NCBI GenBank assembly: GCA_964510805.1
Contig: CAZEDG010000001.1
Location: 48,227-112,226 of the forward strand
DNA length: 64,000 nucleotides
Source of the DNA: an uncultured Candidatus Saccharibacteria bacterium
GTDB lineage: Bacteria > Patescibacteriota > Minisyncoccia > Phycocordibacterales > UBA5272
Direction of reading: 5' to 3'
A program made the position numbers and the translations under genes. The notes below the pieces were generated by a model. It was not told the DNA's origin. It worked only from the letters and a program-made list of their open reading frames with translations, and did not search any database. Within the stretch, counting starts at the first letter, position 1. The number at the start of each line of letters is the position of its first letter. Shown here piece after piece: positions 3,608 through 47,077 of this stretch.

Positions 3608-4663
3608 GTGCCTATGATTAAGCGACTTACGAAGCATCTCTCGAATGATATTGGAATTGATCTTGGAACTGCTAATACACTCGTGTATCTTCGTGGAAGA
3701 GGAATTGTGATTAATGAGCCTTCTGTGGTTGCGGTGAATGCTAAGACTAATCGTGTTGTTGCTGTTGGTATCGAAGCGAAGAACATGATGGGAAGAACTC
3801 CGTCGCATATTCGTATTGTACGACCTCTTGTTGATGGTGTGATTTCTGATTATGAAGTAACGGAAGAGATGCTTAGTTATCTTATCAATAAAGCCAATGA
3901 GATTGATCGTAAGCCATTTCGTCCTCGTGTTGTCATCGGTGTACCGGTCGGAATCACCAATGTAGAGATGCGTGCTGTCTATGACGCTGCTAAGTCAGCA
4001 GGAGCAAGTAGTATCTTTATTGTAGAAGAACCGATGTCTGCAGCGATCGGTGTACACATGCCAATTCATGAACCAGTTGGAAGTATGATTGTTGATATCG
4101 GAGGAGGGACTACTGATATTGCTGTGATTGCGCTCTCAGGTATTGTACGAGCGAAAAGTCTTAAGGTTGCAGGAGATAAGCTTACAGAAGACATCATCTC
4201 GTATATGCGTGACGAGTTCAAGATGCTTATCGGAGAAAAAACAGGTGAGCATATCAAAATGACAATAGGGTCTGCACTTCCTGACGAAAACACTCAAGAG
4301 TTAAGCGTAAAAGGCCGTGATCTTGTAACAGGACTTCCACGAGAAGCAATTATTACTGACGTCGATGTACGAGAAGCGATGTATTCTTCTGTTGCGTCAC
4401 TTGTGGATGCGATTCGTGAAGTACTTGAGACTACTCCACCTGAAGTACTCTCTGATATTATGCATAAAGGTATCACTCTTGCAGGAGGAGGTGCGCTTAT
4501 TAGGAATTTACCTAACCTGCTCGAGATGCAACTCAAAGTTCCAGTTACTGTCGCTGATGATCCTCTCACTGCAGTTGCTCGTGGTACAGGAATTATTCTC
4601 GAACATCTTGATCGCTACAAGGATGTACTTATAGAAAACACCGATGACATATCATTTAGGTAA
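3608..4663 (+). CDS. mreB: rod shape-determining protein MreB
   Basis: IGIDLGTANT, DIGGGTTD; actin-like ATPase. ATG at 3614 is an alternative start. Confidence 0.9.
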   Translation: MPMIKRLTKHLSNDIGIDLGTANTLVYLRGRGIVINEPSVVAVNAKTNRVVAVGIEAKNMMGRTPSHIRIVRPLVDGVISDYEVTEEMLSYLINKANEIDRKPFRPRVVIGVPVGITNVEMRAVYDAAKSAGASSIFIVEEPMSAAIGVHMPIHEPVGSMIVDIGGGTTDIAVIALSGIVRAKSLKVAGDKLTEDIISYMRDEFKMLIGEKTGEHIKMTIGSALPDENTQELSVKGRDLVTGLPREAIITDVDVREAMYSSVASLVDAIREVLETTPPEVLSDIMHKGITLAGGGALIRNLPNLLEMQLKVPVTVADDPLTAVARGTGIILEHLDRYKDVLIENTDDISFR

Positions 4664-5438
4664 AAAAAGAAGATCACCATTAATCAAGTATGGGATAGCG
4701 AGCATGCTTATCATACTCTATGCTTTTTTTTGGCCTACCATAAAAAAAACACTCTACCCTCTATTTGAGCCTCTTGTAGTAAGCTATGCTGACTCTAAGG
4801 GGGCGCTTGGATTTTTCCCTACATTTATACAGACCTATGTTATTTCTCATAAAACTTTAGAAAATGAGAACACAGCACTTAAAGCTGTAATCGAAACACT
4901 TGAGAATCAGGTTGCCAAGCAAGACGCAGAACTTCGCGAGTATGGTCTTATTCATGACGAGAATGCAAGCAGTTCTTTTCCTGTAGAGGACAAACCTATT
5001 GTTATGTATCCACTTTCTCAAGATATTACGAAGTTGTACTCAAGCATTGTACTCTCTAAAGGTTTCAAAGACGGTGTTGCTGTTAATATGCTTGTTTCTG
5101 TAAAAGGAAGAAATGTTGTCTGTCGTATCAAGGAAGTATATCGATCTACCTCGCTCTGTGAACTACTCTCTTCGTACGGAGTGACTACAGAAGGGGTTAC
5201 TTCATCATCTTCGGTAACACTTACTCTCTCTGGTCGTGGAGGACATTACTTGGGAGACGTTGCAAGAGATACACCTATTACAGAAGGAGAAAAAGTATAC
5301 CTCCGTAGCAATCCAAGCCTTGTTCTTGGAACAGTAAGGCAGGTGCTCACTAATAATCAGGCAACGTCGTGGTATGTTTTTGTGGAGACTGTCTATAACC
5401 CGGTTTCCTCTTCCGTTTTTTATGCAGAACAGGAGTGA
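4644..5438 (+). CDS. mreC: rod shape-determining protein MreC
   Basis: Position after mreB; TM, coiled coil, beta-rich C-terminus. Confidence 0.65.
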   Translation: MTYHLGKKRRSPLIKYGIASMLIILYAFFWPTIKKTLYPLFEPLVVSYADSKGALGFFPTFIQTYVISHKTLENENTALKAVIETLENQVAKQDAELREYGLIHDENASSSFPVEDKPIVMYPLSQDITKLYSSIVLSKGFKDGVAVNMLVSVKGRNVVCRIKEVYRSTSLCELLSSYGVTTEGVTSSSSVTLTLSGRGGHYLGDVARDTPITEGEKVYLRSNPSLVLGTVRQVLTNNQATSWYVFVETVYNPVSSSVFYAEQE

Positions 5439-8318: not shown

Positions 8319-8379
8319 GAAAGACGACAGAATACTGACTAGATTTTAGAGATTAGACTTTAGGTATTAGTTGGGCACA

Positions 8380-8420
8380 GAATACAAAGAGCGACGCCGT
8401 AGGCGTCGCTCTTTGTATTC
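8380..8420 (+). terminator. rho-independent terminator, conserved hairpin family
   Basis: 19-bp perfect stem gaatacaaagagcgacgcc / ggcgtcgctctttgtattc, loop gta, T-rich tail. Confidence 0.7.
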
Positions 8421-8601
8421 TTAGTTATGTTTTTGCTTTTTGTTTTCATTCTTCATTCCTCCCTCTTTTCCTAATATCTAAAGTCTAATATCTACTATCT
8501 AGTCTTGTGTCGACTAACTCCCCACAATTTGTTATGATGGCTGTATGAATGTATTATAGTGGTGACTAATTACGAATAACTAATAACGAATAACTATCCC
8601 T

Positions 8602-10059: not shown

Positions 10060-10126
10060 AGAGTGAAGAGTGAAGTTAATACATAAATCCTAAATTAAAG
10101 ATAACAGATTACAGATAGAAGTACAT

Positions 10127-10155
10127 AAAGAGCGACACCGTAGGTGTCGCTCTTT
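10127..10155 (+). terminator. rho-independent terminator, same hairpin family with a compensatory base-pair change
   Basis: aaagagcgacacc-gta-ggtgtcgctcttt. Confidence 0.6.
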
Positions 10156-10294
10156 GTATTTACAACCTCACTCCTCATGCTTCTTGCCTCATTCTCTCCA
10201 CTATCCACACTTTTCTTTCTCTTTTTACTACAAAGTGGGGTATAATGGGTTCAAGTGGGGGGAAGTGGGAGATTTTCCACCACTTACGACCGTT

Positions 10295-27544: not shown

Positions 27545-27590
27545 ATAGATGAGATAGATGGTAGATTTTAGACGTTAGATATTAGAAAAG
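27541..27590 (+). repeat. seven tandem TAGNNNN heptads (TTAG-type stop repeat)
   Basis: atagata gatgaga tagatgg tagattt tagacgt tagatat tagaaaa, immediately after the alaS stop. Confidence 0.7.
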
Positions 27591-27594
27591 AAAA

Positions 27595-27623
27595 AAGGCG
27601 CGACCGCAGGTCGCGCCTTTTTT
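27595..27623 (+). terminator. bidirectional rho-independent terminator
   Basis: aggcgcgacc-gca-ggtcgcgcct, A-run upstream and T-run downstream. Confidence 0.7.
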
Positions 27624-34000: not shown

Positions 34001-34408
34001 ATGTCAGTAGAAACAAAAAATCGTTATATTGAAGCAGTTGGTCGTCGTAAGACTGCGGTTGCTCGTGTACGTATCACACCTTCAACAAAAGCTTCTTTTC
34101 TTATCAATGAAAAAGATGTAAAGGATTATTTCCCTACACATGAGCTTCAGACTATCTCACAAGAAGCTATCTCTAAGTCAGAGATTGGTGAGAAGTTCAC
34201 TGTTACTGTTCATGTAAATGGTGGAGGTATCCATGCGCAAGCAGAAGCGATTCGTCACGGTCTTGCAAGAACTCTTGTTCTTCGTGATGAACAAGTGAAG
34301 AACGCTCTTAAGAAGCTTGGCTTCCTTAAGCGTGACCCTCGTCAGGTTGAACGTAAGAAGTTCGGTCTCAAGAAGGCTCGTAAGTCTCCAACCTGGTCAA
34401 AACGATAG
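34001..34408 (+). CDS. rpsI: 30S ribosomal protein S9
   Basis: Ends with the conserved ...KKARKSPTWSKR. Confidence 0.9.
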   Translation: MSVETKNRYIEAVGRRKTAVARVRITPSTKASFLINEKDVKDYFPTHELQTISQEAISKSEIGEKFTVTVHVNGGGIHAQAEAIRHGLARTLVLRDEQVKNALKKLGFLKRDPRQVERKKFGLKKARKSPTWSKR

Positions 34409-34530
34409 CAAAACTATCCCATCTACTTTGTCGAAACCCCGATTTTGTCGGTCGTCGTACTACCAAGTACGACTTCCTCCAAAATCGGGGTTTCTTCGCG
34501 TATACGGGCAGTTTTGTATCGTTTTGTGTA
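34397..34530 (+). mobile_element. ~130-nt MITE-like element overlapping the last rpsI codons
   Basis: Terminal inverted repeats caaaacgatagcaaaac / gttttgtatcgttttg around a long nested hairpin (gaaaccccgattttg...caaaatcggggtttc). Absent from the downstream duplicate copy. Confidence 0.35.
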
Positions 34531-34613
34531 AGCGTTAAGAGTTTCGCTTTACTTATATTTTCAAAAACACTTATCATTTTACGGTTAAGTGGTTTTGTTA
34601 TATATTTAAATAT

Positions 34614-36074
34614 ATGAAAAAATCTTTTTCTGTTTCATTAATCTTGTTTGTAATGTTATTTGCTTTAGTGACTATTGTTTATATTGTAAATAAAAATAAC
34701 ATTAGAGAACTCTGGGCTGATACCACGAAAGGATTGGTAGGGGCTAAAAAAATACAAGCATCAAGTTCTGCTGAAAGTAGTTCTATTTCTACTGCTGTAG
34801 AAATAGAAAACCCTGAATTGAGGACTGATTTAGTGCTAATGAACCAAATAACAGTTAATGCTAAAATAGAAAACCTTGAAGAAGCAAGTGATGCCGCAAA
34901 AGCATATTTAGGTACAATTTTATTGCTGTCTTCTGGGGATATTGCTTATATAGTTAAAGCTAATCATAAAAGCTCATTATTTTTAAATAATGAAAAGCTG
35001 AAAGAAGAAGGCGTTTCTTTTGTGAAAGAAATAGCAAAAAATTTAGTATATCTCGTTACTGATTTTAAAAATGATCAGGAGTTTTTATTTTTTGGAAGAA
35101 ATTGGGTAGTAGTGGCACCAACAGGACTTTTCACTATCTCTGACGTGCAAGAAATAGATGGTGATATTTCCTATGTTTTTAATAGTAAAAATTTTCAACA
35201 AAAAATCCTTTTTTATAAAGGAAAGAAAATTATAGAAGCCCCATATATAAAAAATGTTAAAAAAACAAGTGGCGGTTTCTCATATATAACTTCTGAAAGC
35301 AGAAAAATCGGAGATACCTTGTTTTATAATGATCAAAAGGTTCTCTCTGCTCATGAAATTCTAAGTTATTTAGAAGTTGGAGATAAACTTGCTTATGTTA
35401 CTTTTGGTTATCTCGACAAGGAACATACTCCAAGTGAAGGGTTTTTTGCTAGTGATTACACAACGAAAGAAACTCTTTTTTATGATGGTAAAAAAATTAT
35501 TACAGATGATTCTATAGAGATATATAACATCTCTAACAAGTTGGCTTATGTGGTAAGTACTAAATATGGTAAAAAAAATCTTTTTTATAATAATAAAAAA
35601 ATAGTAACTGCAGATAATATTACTGATATTAAACCAGTCGGAAATAAGATATCTTATGTTATAAGTGATTATAACGCTGACAAGAAGAAGCTTTTTGTTG
35701 GAGATGATCTTATTGTTACAAAAAATAATATAAATTATATAGATTATATTAATGTTAAAGAAATTAATGGTAAAATCCTTTATAGTGTTCGAGATAATTT
35801 GACAGAAGATATTGTAACTTTTTATGACTCAGAAATGATTGGATCAAATATTGATTTCATGAAAATAATTTCAAGTAATATTGATAACGGACTTTGTTAT
35901 ATTATTTTTGATAAAACCACTCTGAAAAATAGCCTTATGTGTAATAAAAAAATAATAACAGAAAATGTAAGTGATTTTAGGGTGAGTGATATCTCTTCTT
36001 CTACATTTTTTATTTTAAAAACAGAAGAAACAGCAAGCTCTACAATTTTATCAGTTTATAGATTAACTTTATAA
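34614..36074 (+). CDS. membrane-anchored tandem-repeat (beta-propeller-like) protein, very AT-rich
   Basis: N-terminal TM; about 8 repeats of roughly 40-45 aa with core K.LFY.GKKI.T...I....KL.YV; GC much lower than flanks. Confidence 0.5.
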   Translation: MKKSFSVSLILFVMLFALVTIVYIVNKNNIRELWADTTKGLVGAKKIQASSSAESSSISTAVEIENPELRTDLVLMNQITVNAKIENLEEASDAAKAYLGTILLLSSGDIAYIVKANHKSSLFLNNEKLKEEGVSFVKEIAKNLVYLVTDFKNDQEFLFFGRNWVVVAPTGLFTISDVQEIDGDISYVFNSKNFQQKILFYKGKKIIEAPYIKNVKKTSGGFSYITSESRKIGDTLFYNDQKVLSAHEILSYLEVGDKLAYVTFGYLDKEHTPSEGFFASDYTTKETLFYDGKKIITDDSIEIYNISNKLAYVVSTKYGKKNLFYNNKKIVTADNITDIKPVGNKISYVISDYNADKKKLFVGDDLIVTKNNINYIDYINVKEINGKILYSVRDNLTEDIVTFYDSEMIGSNIDFMKIISSNIDNGLCYIIFDKTTLKNSLMCNKKIITENVSDFRVSDISSSTFFILKTEETASSTILSVYRLTL

Positions 36075-36078
36075 AAAT

Positions 36079-36176
36079 CAGGCTCGTAAGTCTCCTACAT
36101 GGAGCAAGCGTTAAGATATCGCTTTACTTATATTTTCAAAAACACCTTGTACATGTAAGGTGTTTTTGGTTTTAAA
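36079..36176 (+). repeat. direct-repeat copy of the rpsI 3' end (ARKSPTWSKR-stop) plus the intact rpsI-type terminator
   Basis: Matches 34374-34396 plus 34531-34600, including coding remnant ggctcgtaagtctcctacatggagcaagcgttaa and terminator aaacacctt-gtacatgt-aaggtgttt. Confidence 0.6.
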
Positions 36177-36265
36177 TTTGACGAACTTACTTAAAAAGTG
36201 TAGTGTATTTACTACATCCTAGTACCTGGATGGGTTAATTGAGCGGATGCTCATAAGGAGTGGAA

Positions 36266-36790
36266 ATGTTTGCTTTCTTCAAGAAACCTTTTGAACCACA
36301 GAAGAGTCAGAATCAAGGAGATTATGTAGGAGATTTTGATAAATGGATTCAACGTAAGAATGCTGTTATAAAACGACTGCTAGAAGATTTTCCTTGGCTT
36401 TGGGCGGTTAATAACCATTATAACAGAGATGATGGTGACCGTATCAAGGTGAATCAGGACATGTCGGACCTTAAGTTGGTTCTTTCCCAAAATTCAGACA
36501 AGACAGGTTTTTTGCTTTGGTCTGTAGCAAGTCATTTTTGTGACAGTTTTAACGTCCTTGTCAAATGTCATGAACGTCAAGAAGGAAAGATCTGGTCTGA
36601 AGCGATCACTCAACAAAGTTACGGCCATAGAAATATTCTTTATTTGGTTTCTGTTGATTGGGGATCTTCTGGTCATGGAATAACTATTTTTCGGCATCCT
36701 GAAAAACAATGTTTGGATGAAGTTATCCAACAGGTTTGTGATCTTCATGGTGTCAACGCTAGACGATTGATATCTTCTGACTTTGTTTGA
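36266..36790 (+). CDS. hypothetical protein
   Basis: Strong AAGGAG SD 5 nt upstream, which is unusual in this window; terminator follows at 36803-36838. Confidence 0.35.
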   Translation: MFAFFKKPFEPQKSQNQGDYVGDFDKWIQRKNAVIKRLLEDFPWLWAVNNHYNRDDGDRIKVNQDMSDLKLVLSQNSDKTGFLLWSVASHFCDSFNVLVKCHERQEGKIWSEAITQQSYGHRNILYLVSVDWGSSGHGITIFRHPEKQCLDEVIQQVCDLHGVNARRLISSDFV

Positions 36791-36802
36791 TTTTTAAGAA
36801 TC

Positions 36803-36838
36803 AACCGCACGGAACCTTCCGTGCGGTTTGCTTTTTTA
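36803..36838 (+). terminator. rho-independent terminator
   Basis: aaccgcacgg-aaccttc-cgtgcggtt followed by TGCTTTTTT. Confidence 0.6.
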
Positions 36839-36975
36839 GAGGTTCTTGACATTTTTTTCTAAATACATTATACACATAGAGTACCCGAATAACTGACAGA
36901 AAGACACGATTGACAGACTGATTGCCGTAAAGTATTTTGATTATTAATTTTTACAATTGAAAATTTAGAATTGAT

Positions 36976-46959: not shown

Positions 46960-46968
46960 GGTTGCAAG

Positions 46969-46997
46969 AGAAGAGCGACGCCGTAGGCGTCGCTCTT
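46969..46997 (+). terminator. rho-independent terminator, conserved hairpin family
   Basis: gaagagcgacgcc-gta-ggcgtcgctcttc. Confidence 0.65.
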
Positions 46998-47077
46998 CTT
47001 AACTTTGATTGACAAAAAGTATTATATTATGTAGTATAATTATTAGTTTTGGGAATCAAAAAATGGAAGGAACCAAA

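Follow-up and report, generated by a model that had tools for sequence, protein, structure and literature searches.

The 64,000-nucleotide (nt) stretch of contig CAZEDG010000001.1 analyzed here (assembly GCA_964510805.1, an uncultured Candidatus Saccharibacteria bacterium; called the window below) contains a 129-nt hairpin that starts inside the last codons of rpsI, the gene for ribosomal protein S9. By its sequence and predicted fold, this hairpin is one of an uncatalogued family of palindromic, rod-shaped elements whose tip is near-invariant. We tentatively favor, with a confidence somewhat short of even, the explanation that these are palindromic modules of the ERIC/Correia kind. Such a module would be transcribed, form a rod that occupies the hairpin at a gene end, and affect the 3′ end of the transcript upstream of it. 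An earlier sequence-only reading of the window had described the same segment as an insertion resembling a miniature inverted-repeat transposable element (MITE) that synonymously recodes the Ser-Lys-Arg-stop end of rpsI.

The hairpin at the end of rpsI

The gene rpsI follows rpsD, rpoA, rplQ and rplM in the window, and grpE and dnaK lie further on (assigned from open reading frames, ORFs, and Pfam). The cluster marks the source as a Parcubacteria/Paceibacterota-like bacterium of the candidate phyla radiation. Its 3′ end reads TGG TCA AAA CGA TAG, with the final four codons TCA AAA CGA TAG at 34397-34408, and 134 nt (34397-34530) separate TGG from AAGCGTTAAG. The anatomy of this 134-nt segment in the sequence-only reading, with inverted-repeat ends, a 15-base-pair (bp) stem, an inner stem and the Ser-Lys-Arg-stop codons, is all present in the sequence. 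In the fold, the 5′ strand of the basal helix P1 is made of the last four rpsI codons and its 3′ strand is the complement of the gene end, with G34408, the third base of TAG, bulged. The next helix, P2, is a perfect 15-bp stem (34433-34447 with 34480-34494), and the tip helix has 8 bp (gtcgtact/agtacgac).

The hairpin is real and far more stable than chance. Folded as RNA, the 129 nt give −63 to −75 kcal/mol (z −9 to −12). The gene-strand RNA with its flanks has −69.7 kcal/mol against −35.0 ± 3.7 for shuffled sequences (z −9.4; none of 200 shuffles was equally stable), the opposite-strand RNA has −74.6 kcal/mol (z −12.4), and the DNA folds of the two strands have −39.6 and −43.1. The folding check suggested by the sequence-only reading thus shows a stability far beyond that of a generic terminator. 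An assembly artefact, its other caveat, is excluded because L001, a contig of JGI, and L002, a contig of ENA, which come from different samples and assemblers, have the same bases throughout the region. No further copy was found in the 64-kb window by 15-mer, tip pattern or covariance model; the apex covariance model R1 had a single match, at 34436-34491 inside the hairpin (56.4 bits, E 8e-14).

Homologous hairpins and plain terminators in relatives

For comparison we fetched contigs encoding S9 proteins 80-99% identical to that of the window (loci are given as L numbers). Most of these relatives (Parcubacteria) have a plain terminator after TAA without the hairpin core. Homologous rods occur at the rpsI stop in two alleles, L009/L013 and L012, and the tip is common to all three rpsI rod alleles. 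The L009/L013 gene ends TGG TCT AAG AGA TAG CAAAAAT...ATTTTTGTATCTCTTAGA, and the L012 gene ends AGT AAG CGT TAA, followed by a rod whose base is paired with AAGCGTTAA.

Between the window and L009, 52 pairs could be compared, with 99% of the cells paired, and 11 pairs were changed on both sides. Three of these compensated changes are inside the Ser, Lys and Arg codons and seven are in P2. When the pairing partners were slid by 1-3 columns as a control, the compensated count fell to 0-1. Differences were found in 27 of 104 paired columns and in 3 of 28 unpaired ones, and the 5′ internal-loop region has one substitution only (column 21, in the CCC/GGG helix). The stems have diverged with compensation, and the loops have stayed fixed. 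Compensated pairs together with near-invariant loops are the pattern generally expected of a structured RNA. Compensated pairs are found both here (11 of 52 pairs) and in the alignment of the Nitrospira-type version described below (13 pairs). DNA palindromes can also keep their arms complementary by template switching, so that compensated changes by themselves do not tell an RNA from a DNA; mismatches and loops that are conserved, on the other hand, speak for selection acting on one folded strand.

In the window and in L009 alike, the frame of the rpsI TAG runs on through the hairpin for 43 codons without a stop. Read-through of TAG was considered and rejected, since the compensated stem changes alter the amino acids non-conservatively and an open frame of this kind has P ~0.13.

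The codons at the gene end are not peculiar to hairpin carriers. L003, whose rpsI is 98% identical and without the element, ends TCA AAA CGT TAA before a plain terminator, and the element-free rpsI of L045 ends TCT AAA CGA TAA. TCA or TCT, AAA or AAG and CGN are therefore ordinary codons here, which argues against the claim that the element recodes Ser-Lys-Arg-stop. Plain terminators can also use these codons. The L008 terminator is a stem of about 30 pairs with two mismatches that takes in GAGTAAGCGTTAA (−39.3 kcal/mol), and that of L043 is a perfect 32-bp stem that takes in GGAGTAAGCGCTAA (−52.1 kcal/mol); the terminator of L003 does not involve the Ser-Lys-Arg-stop codons. These long plain stems enter the coding sequence up to the Ser codon (L043:1560-1640, L008:4385-4460), and that of L043 reaches two bases into the Trp codon. 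In total, the Ser-Lys-Arg-stop codons are paired with a downstream arm in five alleles, which use four or five codon sets and occur with and without the conserved core. The core, where present, occupies the tip of such a hairpin: L008 (..ACTTCATGCGAAG..) and L012 (..ACTTCATCTGC-core-..GCATCTAAAG..) have common P1-like arms and 9 junction nucleotides. This likeness would be expected if the core had entered the tip of a gene-end hairpin that was already there, and equally if a core had been lost and a plain hairpin left. TAG with a bulged G is found in both window-type alleles and TAA in every hairpin-free relative examined; the TAG usage probably reflects shared ancestry of that hairpin allele.

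Among the 408 positions of rpsI, L009 and L012 have different bases at 12, and 5 of these belong to the final 12 positions (P = 6e-6). Between L035 and L043 there are 6 differences; 4 belong to the final 12 positions, and none lies outside the final 19 (P = 6e-6). The 8 differences between the window and L003 are all after nt 327. This crowding of allele differences at the end of rpsI argues that recombination exchanges alleles, with breakpoints in the last 20-80 nt. The rpsI end and the downstream hairpin appear, from these alignments, to be swapped as one block.

These observations bear on the version proposed in the sequence-only reading, an element specific for the rpsI end that carries its own recoded Ser-Lys-Arg-stop and inserts without loss of the essential C-terminus. 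It would explain why the homology of the window hairpin with that of L009 extends down to GATAG-CAAAA, why both have TAG when hairpin-free relatives use TAA, why remnants of older gene ends or hairpin arms lie behind both hairpins, and why Ser-Lys-Arg-stop is present at all (chance P = 1.3e-5). However, the L012 core follows an unchanged AGT AAG CGT TAA, the same codons are included in plain-terminator stems (L008, L043), and the exchange breakpoints are 20-80 nt upstream inside rpsI rather than at the Trp/Ser junction. The codons AGC AAG CGT TAA that had been taken as the starting state belong to an older displaced end, not to the immediate pre-insertion state, and gene end and hairpin are swapped together. 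The same family adjoins the stop codons of many unrelated genes, as described below, and is therefore not specific for rpsI as a target. We consider this version very doubtful; the hairpin probably did not recode rpsI.

A family of rods across phyla

The census used one exact-match pattern per large collection, TCGGTCNNCGTACTAN{2,4}AGTNCGNCT, with the tip written as TCGGTCnnCGTACTA..AGTnCGnCT. It found 13 loci in species-representative genomes, against about 3 expected by chance, and 8 contigs in metagenomes. All scanned loci except L026 fold as the same kind of rod; members score 47-68 bits with R1, and L026, which is inside an ORF, scores 21.7 bits. R1 detected no additional copies in 64 other loci. 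The idea of a discrete hairpin belonging to a repeated family is thereby borne out, with about 20 further rods.

The members are about 120-135 nt long with −36 to −75 kcal/mol, and the Nitrospira-type version has about 216 nt. P1 is copy-specific, AT-rich and 5-19 bp long; it is followed by a 5′ loop CATCTnCTTTGT opposite TTCGCGTAT or TCTCCGCGCC, a variable P2 and the tip, for which the consensus is TC-GG-TCnn-CGTACT-loop-AGTACG-nCTy-CC-TC. The tip alignment has 20 invariant columns in 21 sequences, most of them fixed by the search pattern. Outer stems differ even between copies of one genome (TTAGGCTG/CAGCCTAA, GGATG/CATCC, AGGGCTG/CAGCCT), and only L025 and L030 share an outer 5′ arm.

Among other members of the candidate phyla radiation (CPR), the hosts are Saccharibacteria, Kerfeldbacteria and two unclassified metagenome-assembled genomes (MAGs) from glacier streams, which are taken to be CPR from gene content and base composition. 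Further hosts are an uncultured mouse-gut Firmicutes MAG (MGBC125362), with 4 copies on 4 contigs, and Nitrospiraceae and Desulfobacterales. GFS_12994 has three copies that are unrelated outside the core. The Nitrospiraceae version of about 216 nt is branched by an extra 5′ hairpin and shows 13 compensated pairs. It was seen in two contexts that are unrelated to each other. One context is about 190 nt upstream of tRNA-Glu(CUC) and the other is upstream of a protein gene, each beside a divergently oriented gene. In this it resembles an RNA gene of its own, or a leader, more than an element of gene ends.

No Rfam 15 family reached the gathering score in the window and 20 loci, and three focused searches with E up to 10 gave chance-level hits only. 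The window element had no BLAST match in plasmids or phages, nor had the Firmicutes element any in plasmids, and the tip pattern had 0 matches in viral contigs. Full-text literature search for the tip, on both strands and as DNA and RNA, returned an unrelated primer only, and keyword searches returned nothing relevant.

The census also answers whether the hairpin could be an ordinary, unusually long, lineage-specific terminator with a coincidental tip similarity. It does sit at the operon terminator position, and relatives have long terminators at the same site. But at least four phyla contain further rods, 20 in all, that share its tip and its loop motifs, when about 3 chance matches would be expected, and the loops are conserved while the stems covary. 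These findings effectively refute a mere terminator.

Stop codons, orientation, gain and loss

Flanking genes could be called at 12 loci, rpsI included; the statements on stop codons refer to loci other than the Nitrospira type. At all 12 the rod adjoins, within a few bases, or overlaps the stop codon of unrelated housekeeping genes: rpsI, UDG-family, thiC, lemA, iron alcohol dehydrogenase (ADH), fabH, rpsL, POR subunit, rplF, tuf, M16 peptidase and zincin. Homologous elements at gene 3′ ends elsewhere, which the sequence-only reading had suggested looking for, thus exist both at different loci of the same MAG and in other phyla. In a Kerfeldbacteria MAG the element (L022:4983-5038, minus strand) lies between the 23S gene (ending at 5184) and the 5S gene (4320-4436), on the rRNA strand. 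The stop-codon location is often at translation genes (rpsI, rpsL, rplF, tuf and the 23S-5S spacer). TCGGTC is on the coding strand at 12 independent loci, whereas at 2 it is on the other strand (P = 0.013). The two opposite-orientation copies, at the M16 peptidase and zincin genes, belong to one MAG, and there too the rod adjoins the stop.

The Firmicutes ADH-priA site documents both gain and loss of the element. The gap between the two genes is 148 nt with the element and 20 nt in 88%-identical relatives, and the 20-nt gap starts with the element's own 5′ end, TGTCAATAAACGCT (other copies have TGTCGATAAACGCT there). ADH ends in Cys-X-stop in the element carrier and the 88% relatives, and in RLAL-stop in the outgroup. 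Footprint and ADH endings together argue that the final ADH codons and their stop came from the element, which then disappeared except for the footprint. L062, the sole empty site obtained, resembles a deletion footprint more than a pre-insertion site.

Such movement would be expected of a purely DNA-level non-autonomous transposon, a true MITE, whose transposase is elsewhere in the genome, with the stop-codon position merely tolerated or an AT-rich or TA target and any RNA effect incidental. Diverged copies are present at unrelated loci in one MAG (four in the Firmicutes MAG, three in GFS_12994), L025 and L030 share outer 5′ sequence at different genes, both orientations are found, the upstream ORF can run into the element and stop inside it, and presence, absence and footprint are seen at ADH-priA. 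The conservation is nevertheless the wrong way around for a MITE: the center is conserved, not the termini, and P1 differs among copies of one genome, with compensation. No consistent target-site duplication was seen; the TA..TA that can be read at several copies is self-complementary in the palindrome and says little either way. The copy number is low (1 in 64 kb), no transposase or recombinase was seen among the scanned window ORFs (minus-strand or unknown), and the element was not found in plasmid, phage and viral collections. A near-identical cross-phylum tip is also hard to explain as a transposase site at the middle of an element. The MITE label of the sequence-only reading therefore fits only in part, and a true MITE seems unlikely to us.

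Proposed role and the question of strand

In the explanation that we favor, the rod would be transcribed with the rpsI operon and fold right at the stop codon. There it would end, process or shield the 3′ end of the transcript, and it would insulate rpsI from the foreign gene ORF486 downstream, which has its own promoter-like site at 34548-34577. The loops and the tip would form the putative binding site of a conserved factor, which would be the reason that they are constant while the stems drift. Within lineages, the hairpin together with the last 20-80 nt of rpsI would be exchanged by homologous recombination between related strains. Serial replacements would have pushed older gene ends downstream and left the remnants at 34530-34570 and 36080-36145. 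The Ser-Lys-Arg-stop codons change together with the opposite arm of the gene-end hairpin and, in this clade, do so also in plain terminators.

Several points weigh against this explanation. The single-pattern census biases the diversity, the copy number and the apparent conservation of the tip. Most copies are without a clear U-tract and so are not classical intrinsic terminators, two copies are antisense to their genes, and no binding factor or mobilizing enzyme was identified. We infer termination, processing and protection of the 3′ end. The strand opposite the gene folds better by 7-20 kcal/mol in 12 of 13 members, and isolated mismatches on the gene strand are A.C in 16 cases and G.T in 6 (P = 0.05). 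In every member the gene strand has more C than G (+6 to +17) and more T than A (+5 to +16), so the unpaired positions are pyrimidine on the gene strand and purine on the other. The tip of the opposite strand, GA-GG-RAGn-CGUACU..AGUACG-nnGA-CC-GA, has two tandem purine-purine mismatches around GG/CC. Purine-rich loops of this kind look more like a functional RNA or single-stranded DNA on the opposite strand, and they recall the bottom-strand bias of attC sites.

Minimum free energy, mismatch types, composition and the alifold result lean towards the strand opposite rpsI. The functional molecule might accordingly be on that strand, as a small structured RNA gene, a cis-antisense RNA or a folded single DNA strand whose purine-rich loops (tandem G.A beside GG/CC) are recognized. 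The better fold is seen also in the Nitrospira alignment (−103 versus −85 kcal/mol), and Nitrospira-type copies are in promoter-containing intergenic regions, not at gene ends. On the other hand, the two strands of the Nitrospira set do not differ in their G.U counts, the energy model as such favors loops rich in purines, and one-sided changes between the window and L009 are to U.G on the gene strand. In the fabH-fabK or rpsL operons an antisense gene would run against operon transcription. A promoter scan of the opposite strand at the window copy, itself uninformative, found no promoter-like site. We regard an opposite-strand molecule as improbable. Neither it nor a MITE is fully exclusive of the favored gene-end module.

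The strand bias and the position at a stop codon also recall integron recombination sites. An attC site is a palindrome, imperfect and 57-141 nt long, which adjoins or overlaps the stop codon of the ORF before it, and its bottom strand folds better. The element is alike in these respects, being an imperfect palindrome at an ORF stop with the better fold on the strand opposite the ORF. If it were an attC-like structure-specific recombination site, the folded bottom strand would be a recombinase substrate for cargo insertion, and this would account for the variable genes after rpsI. Variable orphan genes do follow the hairpin in the window, L009 and L012, and the rpsI-grpE gap is a hot spot of cargo. 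However, most copies are without cargo and lie between operon genes, cargo is found also behind plain terminators (L004, L035, L045), and the homologues of ORF486 are not beside hairpins. The R″/R′ boxes RYYYAAC / GTTRRRY do not match: the window, with GCAAAAC / GTTTTGT, fits AAC/GTT only, and L009, with CAAAAAT ... ATTTTTG, has neither AAC nor GTT. The R/L box consensus is missed, no integrase was found in the scanned window ORFs, and there is usually no cassette. In attC the center is variable and the base conserved, the reverse of the element. A relation to attC therefore seems quite improbable, even more so than the opposite-strand alternative.

The pattern of conservation implies an unnamed conserved partner or activity. 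It is possible, though we rate it clearly below the favored explanation, that the family is a new cross-phylum nucleic-acid module, RNA or folded single-stranded DNA, which is carried at the tips of gene-end hairpins, where a universal cellular factor recognizes it. It would be defined by the tip helix CGUACU/AGUACG, by the loops CATCTnCTTTGT // TTCGCGTAT and, on one strand, by a GG/CC step flanked by two tandem purine-purine mismatches. Under the same proposal, the family could instead have an undescribed way of spreading that builds the basal stem from the target's own sequence, for example by inverted copying of the flank or by microhomology exchange between terminator arms.

Comparison with known repeats

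The ERIC or IRU elements of Enterobacteria and Yersinia are 127-nt imperfect palindromes in transcribed intergenic regions of operons. They have a conserved central core, occur in both orientations, fold in mRNA and have an orientation-dependent effect on mRNA stability. The element resembles them in size, rod fold, operon or gene-end location, conserved center and presence in both orientations. Like ERIC and Correia elements, it is an intergenic palindrome of 100-150 nt that forms an RNA hairpin and, as its positions at operon genes and in an rRNA spacer suggest, is transcribed. In contrast to ERIC, which has tens to hundreds of copies and is restricted to one family, it has 1-4 copies per genome and spans CPR, Firmicutes, Nitrospirota and Desulfobacterota. 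Its basal stem is copy-specific and can use the last codons of the upstream gene, and no TA duplication is demonstrable. We know of no resemblance of the tip to the ERIC or Correia consensus.

The Correia elements (CREE/NEMIS) of Neisseria and the RUP and BOX elements of Streptococcus are small co-transcribed hairpin repeats that can supply stops or terminators and are processed as RNA. They have conserved terminal inverted repeats and TA duplications and are high-copy and genus-restricted, whereas in the element the ends vary and the tip is conserved. Rickettsia palindromic elements (RPE) are comparable as palindromes of about 100-150 nt that coexist with coding sequence: the Firmicutes ADH reads into the element, and rpsI codons form its stem. 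They differ in that RPE insert in frame and add a peptide segment, whereas the element lies at the stop codon and gives a gene no more than its final few codons. REP/BIME and the RAYT-mobilized REPIN are extragenic gene-end palindromes that can form long hairpins and stabilize upstream mRNA. REPIN have conserved flanks of about 25 nt, a variable loop and a 5′ GTAG-type signature; the element is reversed, and no RAYT-like ORF was seen among the scanned window ORFs.

With intrinsic terminators the element shares the position directly after the stop. Its P1 arms are like the A-tract/T-tract arms of the bidirectional terminators of relatives, and plain terminators at the rpsI site share P1-like bases with it. 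It differs in having about 50 base pairs rather than 5-15, loops and a tip that are conserved across phyla, and no consistent U-tract. A terminator scan of the rpsI region calls the 36136-36169 hairpin only, not the element.

In its presumed working the element comes closest to ERIC, Correia and REP, which are likewise extragenic palindromes that are transcribed at the ends of genes. ERIC, Correia, REP and RPE are known as genus-level, high-copy repeats with conserved ends. The present family is unlike them in being low-copy, with compensated stems and a tip shared by CPR, Firmicutes, Nitrospirota and Desulfobacterota. Its distinctive feature is a near-invariant center across phyla combined with copy-specific bases that can be the last codons of the host gene. 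The family offers a concrete candidate for a new motif, of RNA or of single-stranded DNA, from organisms with a scarcely known non-coding repertoire.

Resemblances noticed by eye were set aside, since they apply to no more than one or two members or misfit the pairing. They were a hammerhead core (UGAUGAG..CGAAUC in L020), a K-turn, the sarcin-ricin loop (AGUACG..GACCG), SRP domain IV, 6S RNA, the Ro site of Y RNA, the RSF1010 oriT nick region, the 16S 3′ end, parS and CIRCE.

Displaced gene ends and ORF486

Two remnants of older rpsI ends lie downstream of the hairpin (Table 1). The first (34530-34570) is directly 3′ of the hairpin and reads AAGCGTTAAGAG..CGCTTTACTT..CAAAAACAC, shorter than the second. 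The second was introduced in the sequence-only reading as copy 2, and its TGG AGC AAG CGT TAA is found at 36080-36145 as claimed. As a second copy, however, it has no more of rpsI than the final 35 nt (33 coding nt, starting at nt 373, then TAA), with about 30 nt downstream, and reads ..AAG TCT CCT ACA TGG AGC AAG CGT TAA. In its fold, each remnant looks like the base of a once long hairpin that has collapsed (AAGCG ... CGCTTTACT).

Copy 2 is an older end of rpsI, displaced and left behind at the entry of a foreign low-GC orphan gene. That insert, ORF486, is about 1.5 kb long with 23-30% GC, compared with about 42% in the surrounding sequence. The simplest history for the nested remnants, as their anatomy suggests, would be serial replacements that were anchored by rpsI homology and joined illegitimately on the right. 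The locus would thus be an essential gene end that has been rebuilt repeatedly by recombination while the universally conserved S9 tail was kept. Nested displaced gene ends may be a useful marker of homology-anchored foreign-gene insertion in CPR genomes. A related arrangement is seen in a comparison of L009:4530-4580 with L012:2110-2150, where TATTTTAATGCTTACAAAATGCTTTACATA behind the L009 hairpin matches the L012-type 3′ arm and downstream sequence. This match argues that L009 holds a remnant of an older hairpin, nested as in the window.

Only two homologues of ORF486 were found among 5.8 billion proteins (42% and 38% identity), and at both inspected loci they are not adjoining rpsI and are without a hairpin. 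One of them is in the MAG GFS_5796, and the same MAG has a hairpin element at lemA-htpX. ORF486 has an internal periodic motif (..LFY.gKKI...).

Table 1. Positions of the features at the rpsI end, with the Nitrospiraceae copies of the family in the last row. Coordinates are those of the window unless an L number is given.
Feature	Position	Strand	Basis
rpsI, ribosomal protein S9, 135 aa	34001..34408	+	ORF; Pfam PF00380 Ribosomal_S9, E 3.9e-39
Whole hairpin, 129-nt imperfect palindrome; rod with three helices and conserved internal loops	34398..34526	+	folds; covariance model
P1 5′ arm, caaaacgatagcaaaac	34398..34414	+	sequence, fold, L009 comparison
5′ internal-loop region, tatcccatctactttgtc	34415..34432	+	motif CATCTnCTTTGT recurrent in family
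P2 5′ arm, gaaaccccgattttg	34433..34447	+	variable sequence, always paired
Conserved apex, TC-GG-TC-GTCGTACT-acca-AGTACGAC-TT-CC-TC	34448..34479	+	family signature, common to several phyla
P2 3′ arm, caaaatcggggtttc	34480..34494	+	fold, L009 comparison
3′ internal-loop region, ttcgcgtatacgggca	34495..34510	+	motif TTCGCGTAT / TCTCCGCGCC recurrent in family
P1 3′ arm, gttttgtatcgttttg, complementary to gene end	34511..34526	+	sequence, fold
Remnant 1 of older rpsI end (aagcgttaag ... cgctttactt ... caaaaacac), then degenerate terminator-like hairpin	34530..34597	+	alignment to copy 2; fold
ORF486, foreign-looking orphan, 486 aa	34614..36074	+	23-30% GC; N-terminal hydrophobic segment; no Pfam family
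Copy 2, displaced older rpsI 3′ end and base of former hairpin	36080..36145	+	sequence, alignment, fold
Intact intrinsic terminator, the original rpsI terminator, now 3′ of ORF486	36136..36169	+	terminator scan: 15-pair stem and T run
Nitrospiraceae copies	L027:1197-1420, L028, L029; L019, L032, L033		

The rpsI-grpE interval and other gene-end motifs

The rpsI-grpE/dnaK interval (34409-36975 in the window) is a hot spot of variable, mostly unannotated genes, with 0 to 5 ORFs. This variability was seen in the window, L004, L005, L008, L009, L012, L035, L045, L055 and L056. The content differs even between strains with identical S9, and one lineage has an MFS transporter there. In the window, a 176-aa ORF without a Pfam family (36260-36790) lies between the displaced rpsI end and grpE.

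Two other repeated gene-end sequences were observed in the window. A TAG/TTAGA-rich motif of about 35 nt, gacTAGATgTTgGAcgTTAGACtTTAGATATTAGaaaa, directly follows three plus-strand ORFs and precedes terminator hairpins (617-658, 8337-8381 and 27555-27596). An inverted copy is at 8471-8504, so that 8337-8504 consists of two inverted copies around a terminator and about 50 nt. The motif may be a second gene-end element family or a multi-frame stop module. The terminators at 8379-8421, 10120-10160 and 46963-47003 share a GC core, AGAGCGACGCCGTAGGCGTCGCTCT, that is 76-100% identical, and they are one repeated hairpin, not independently evolved terminators.

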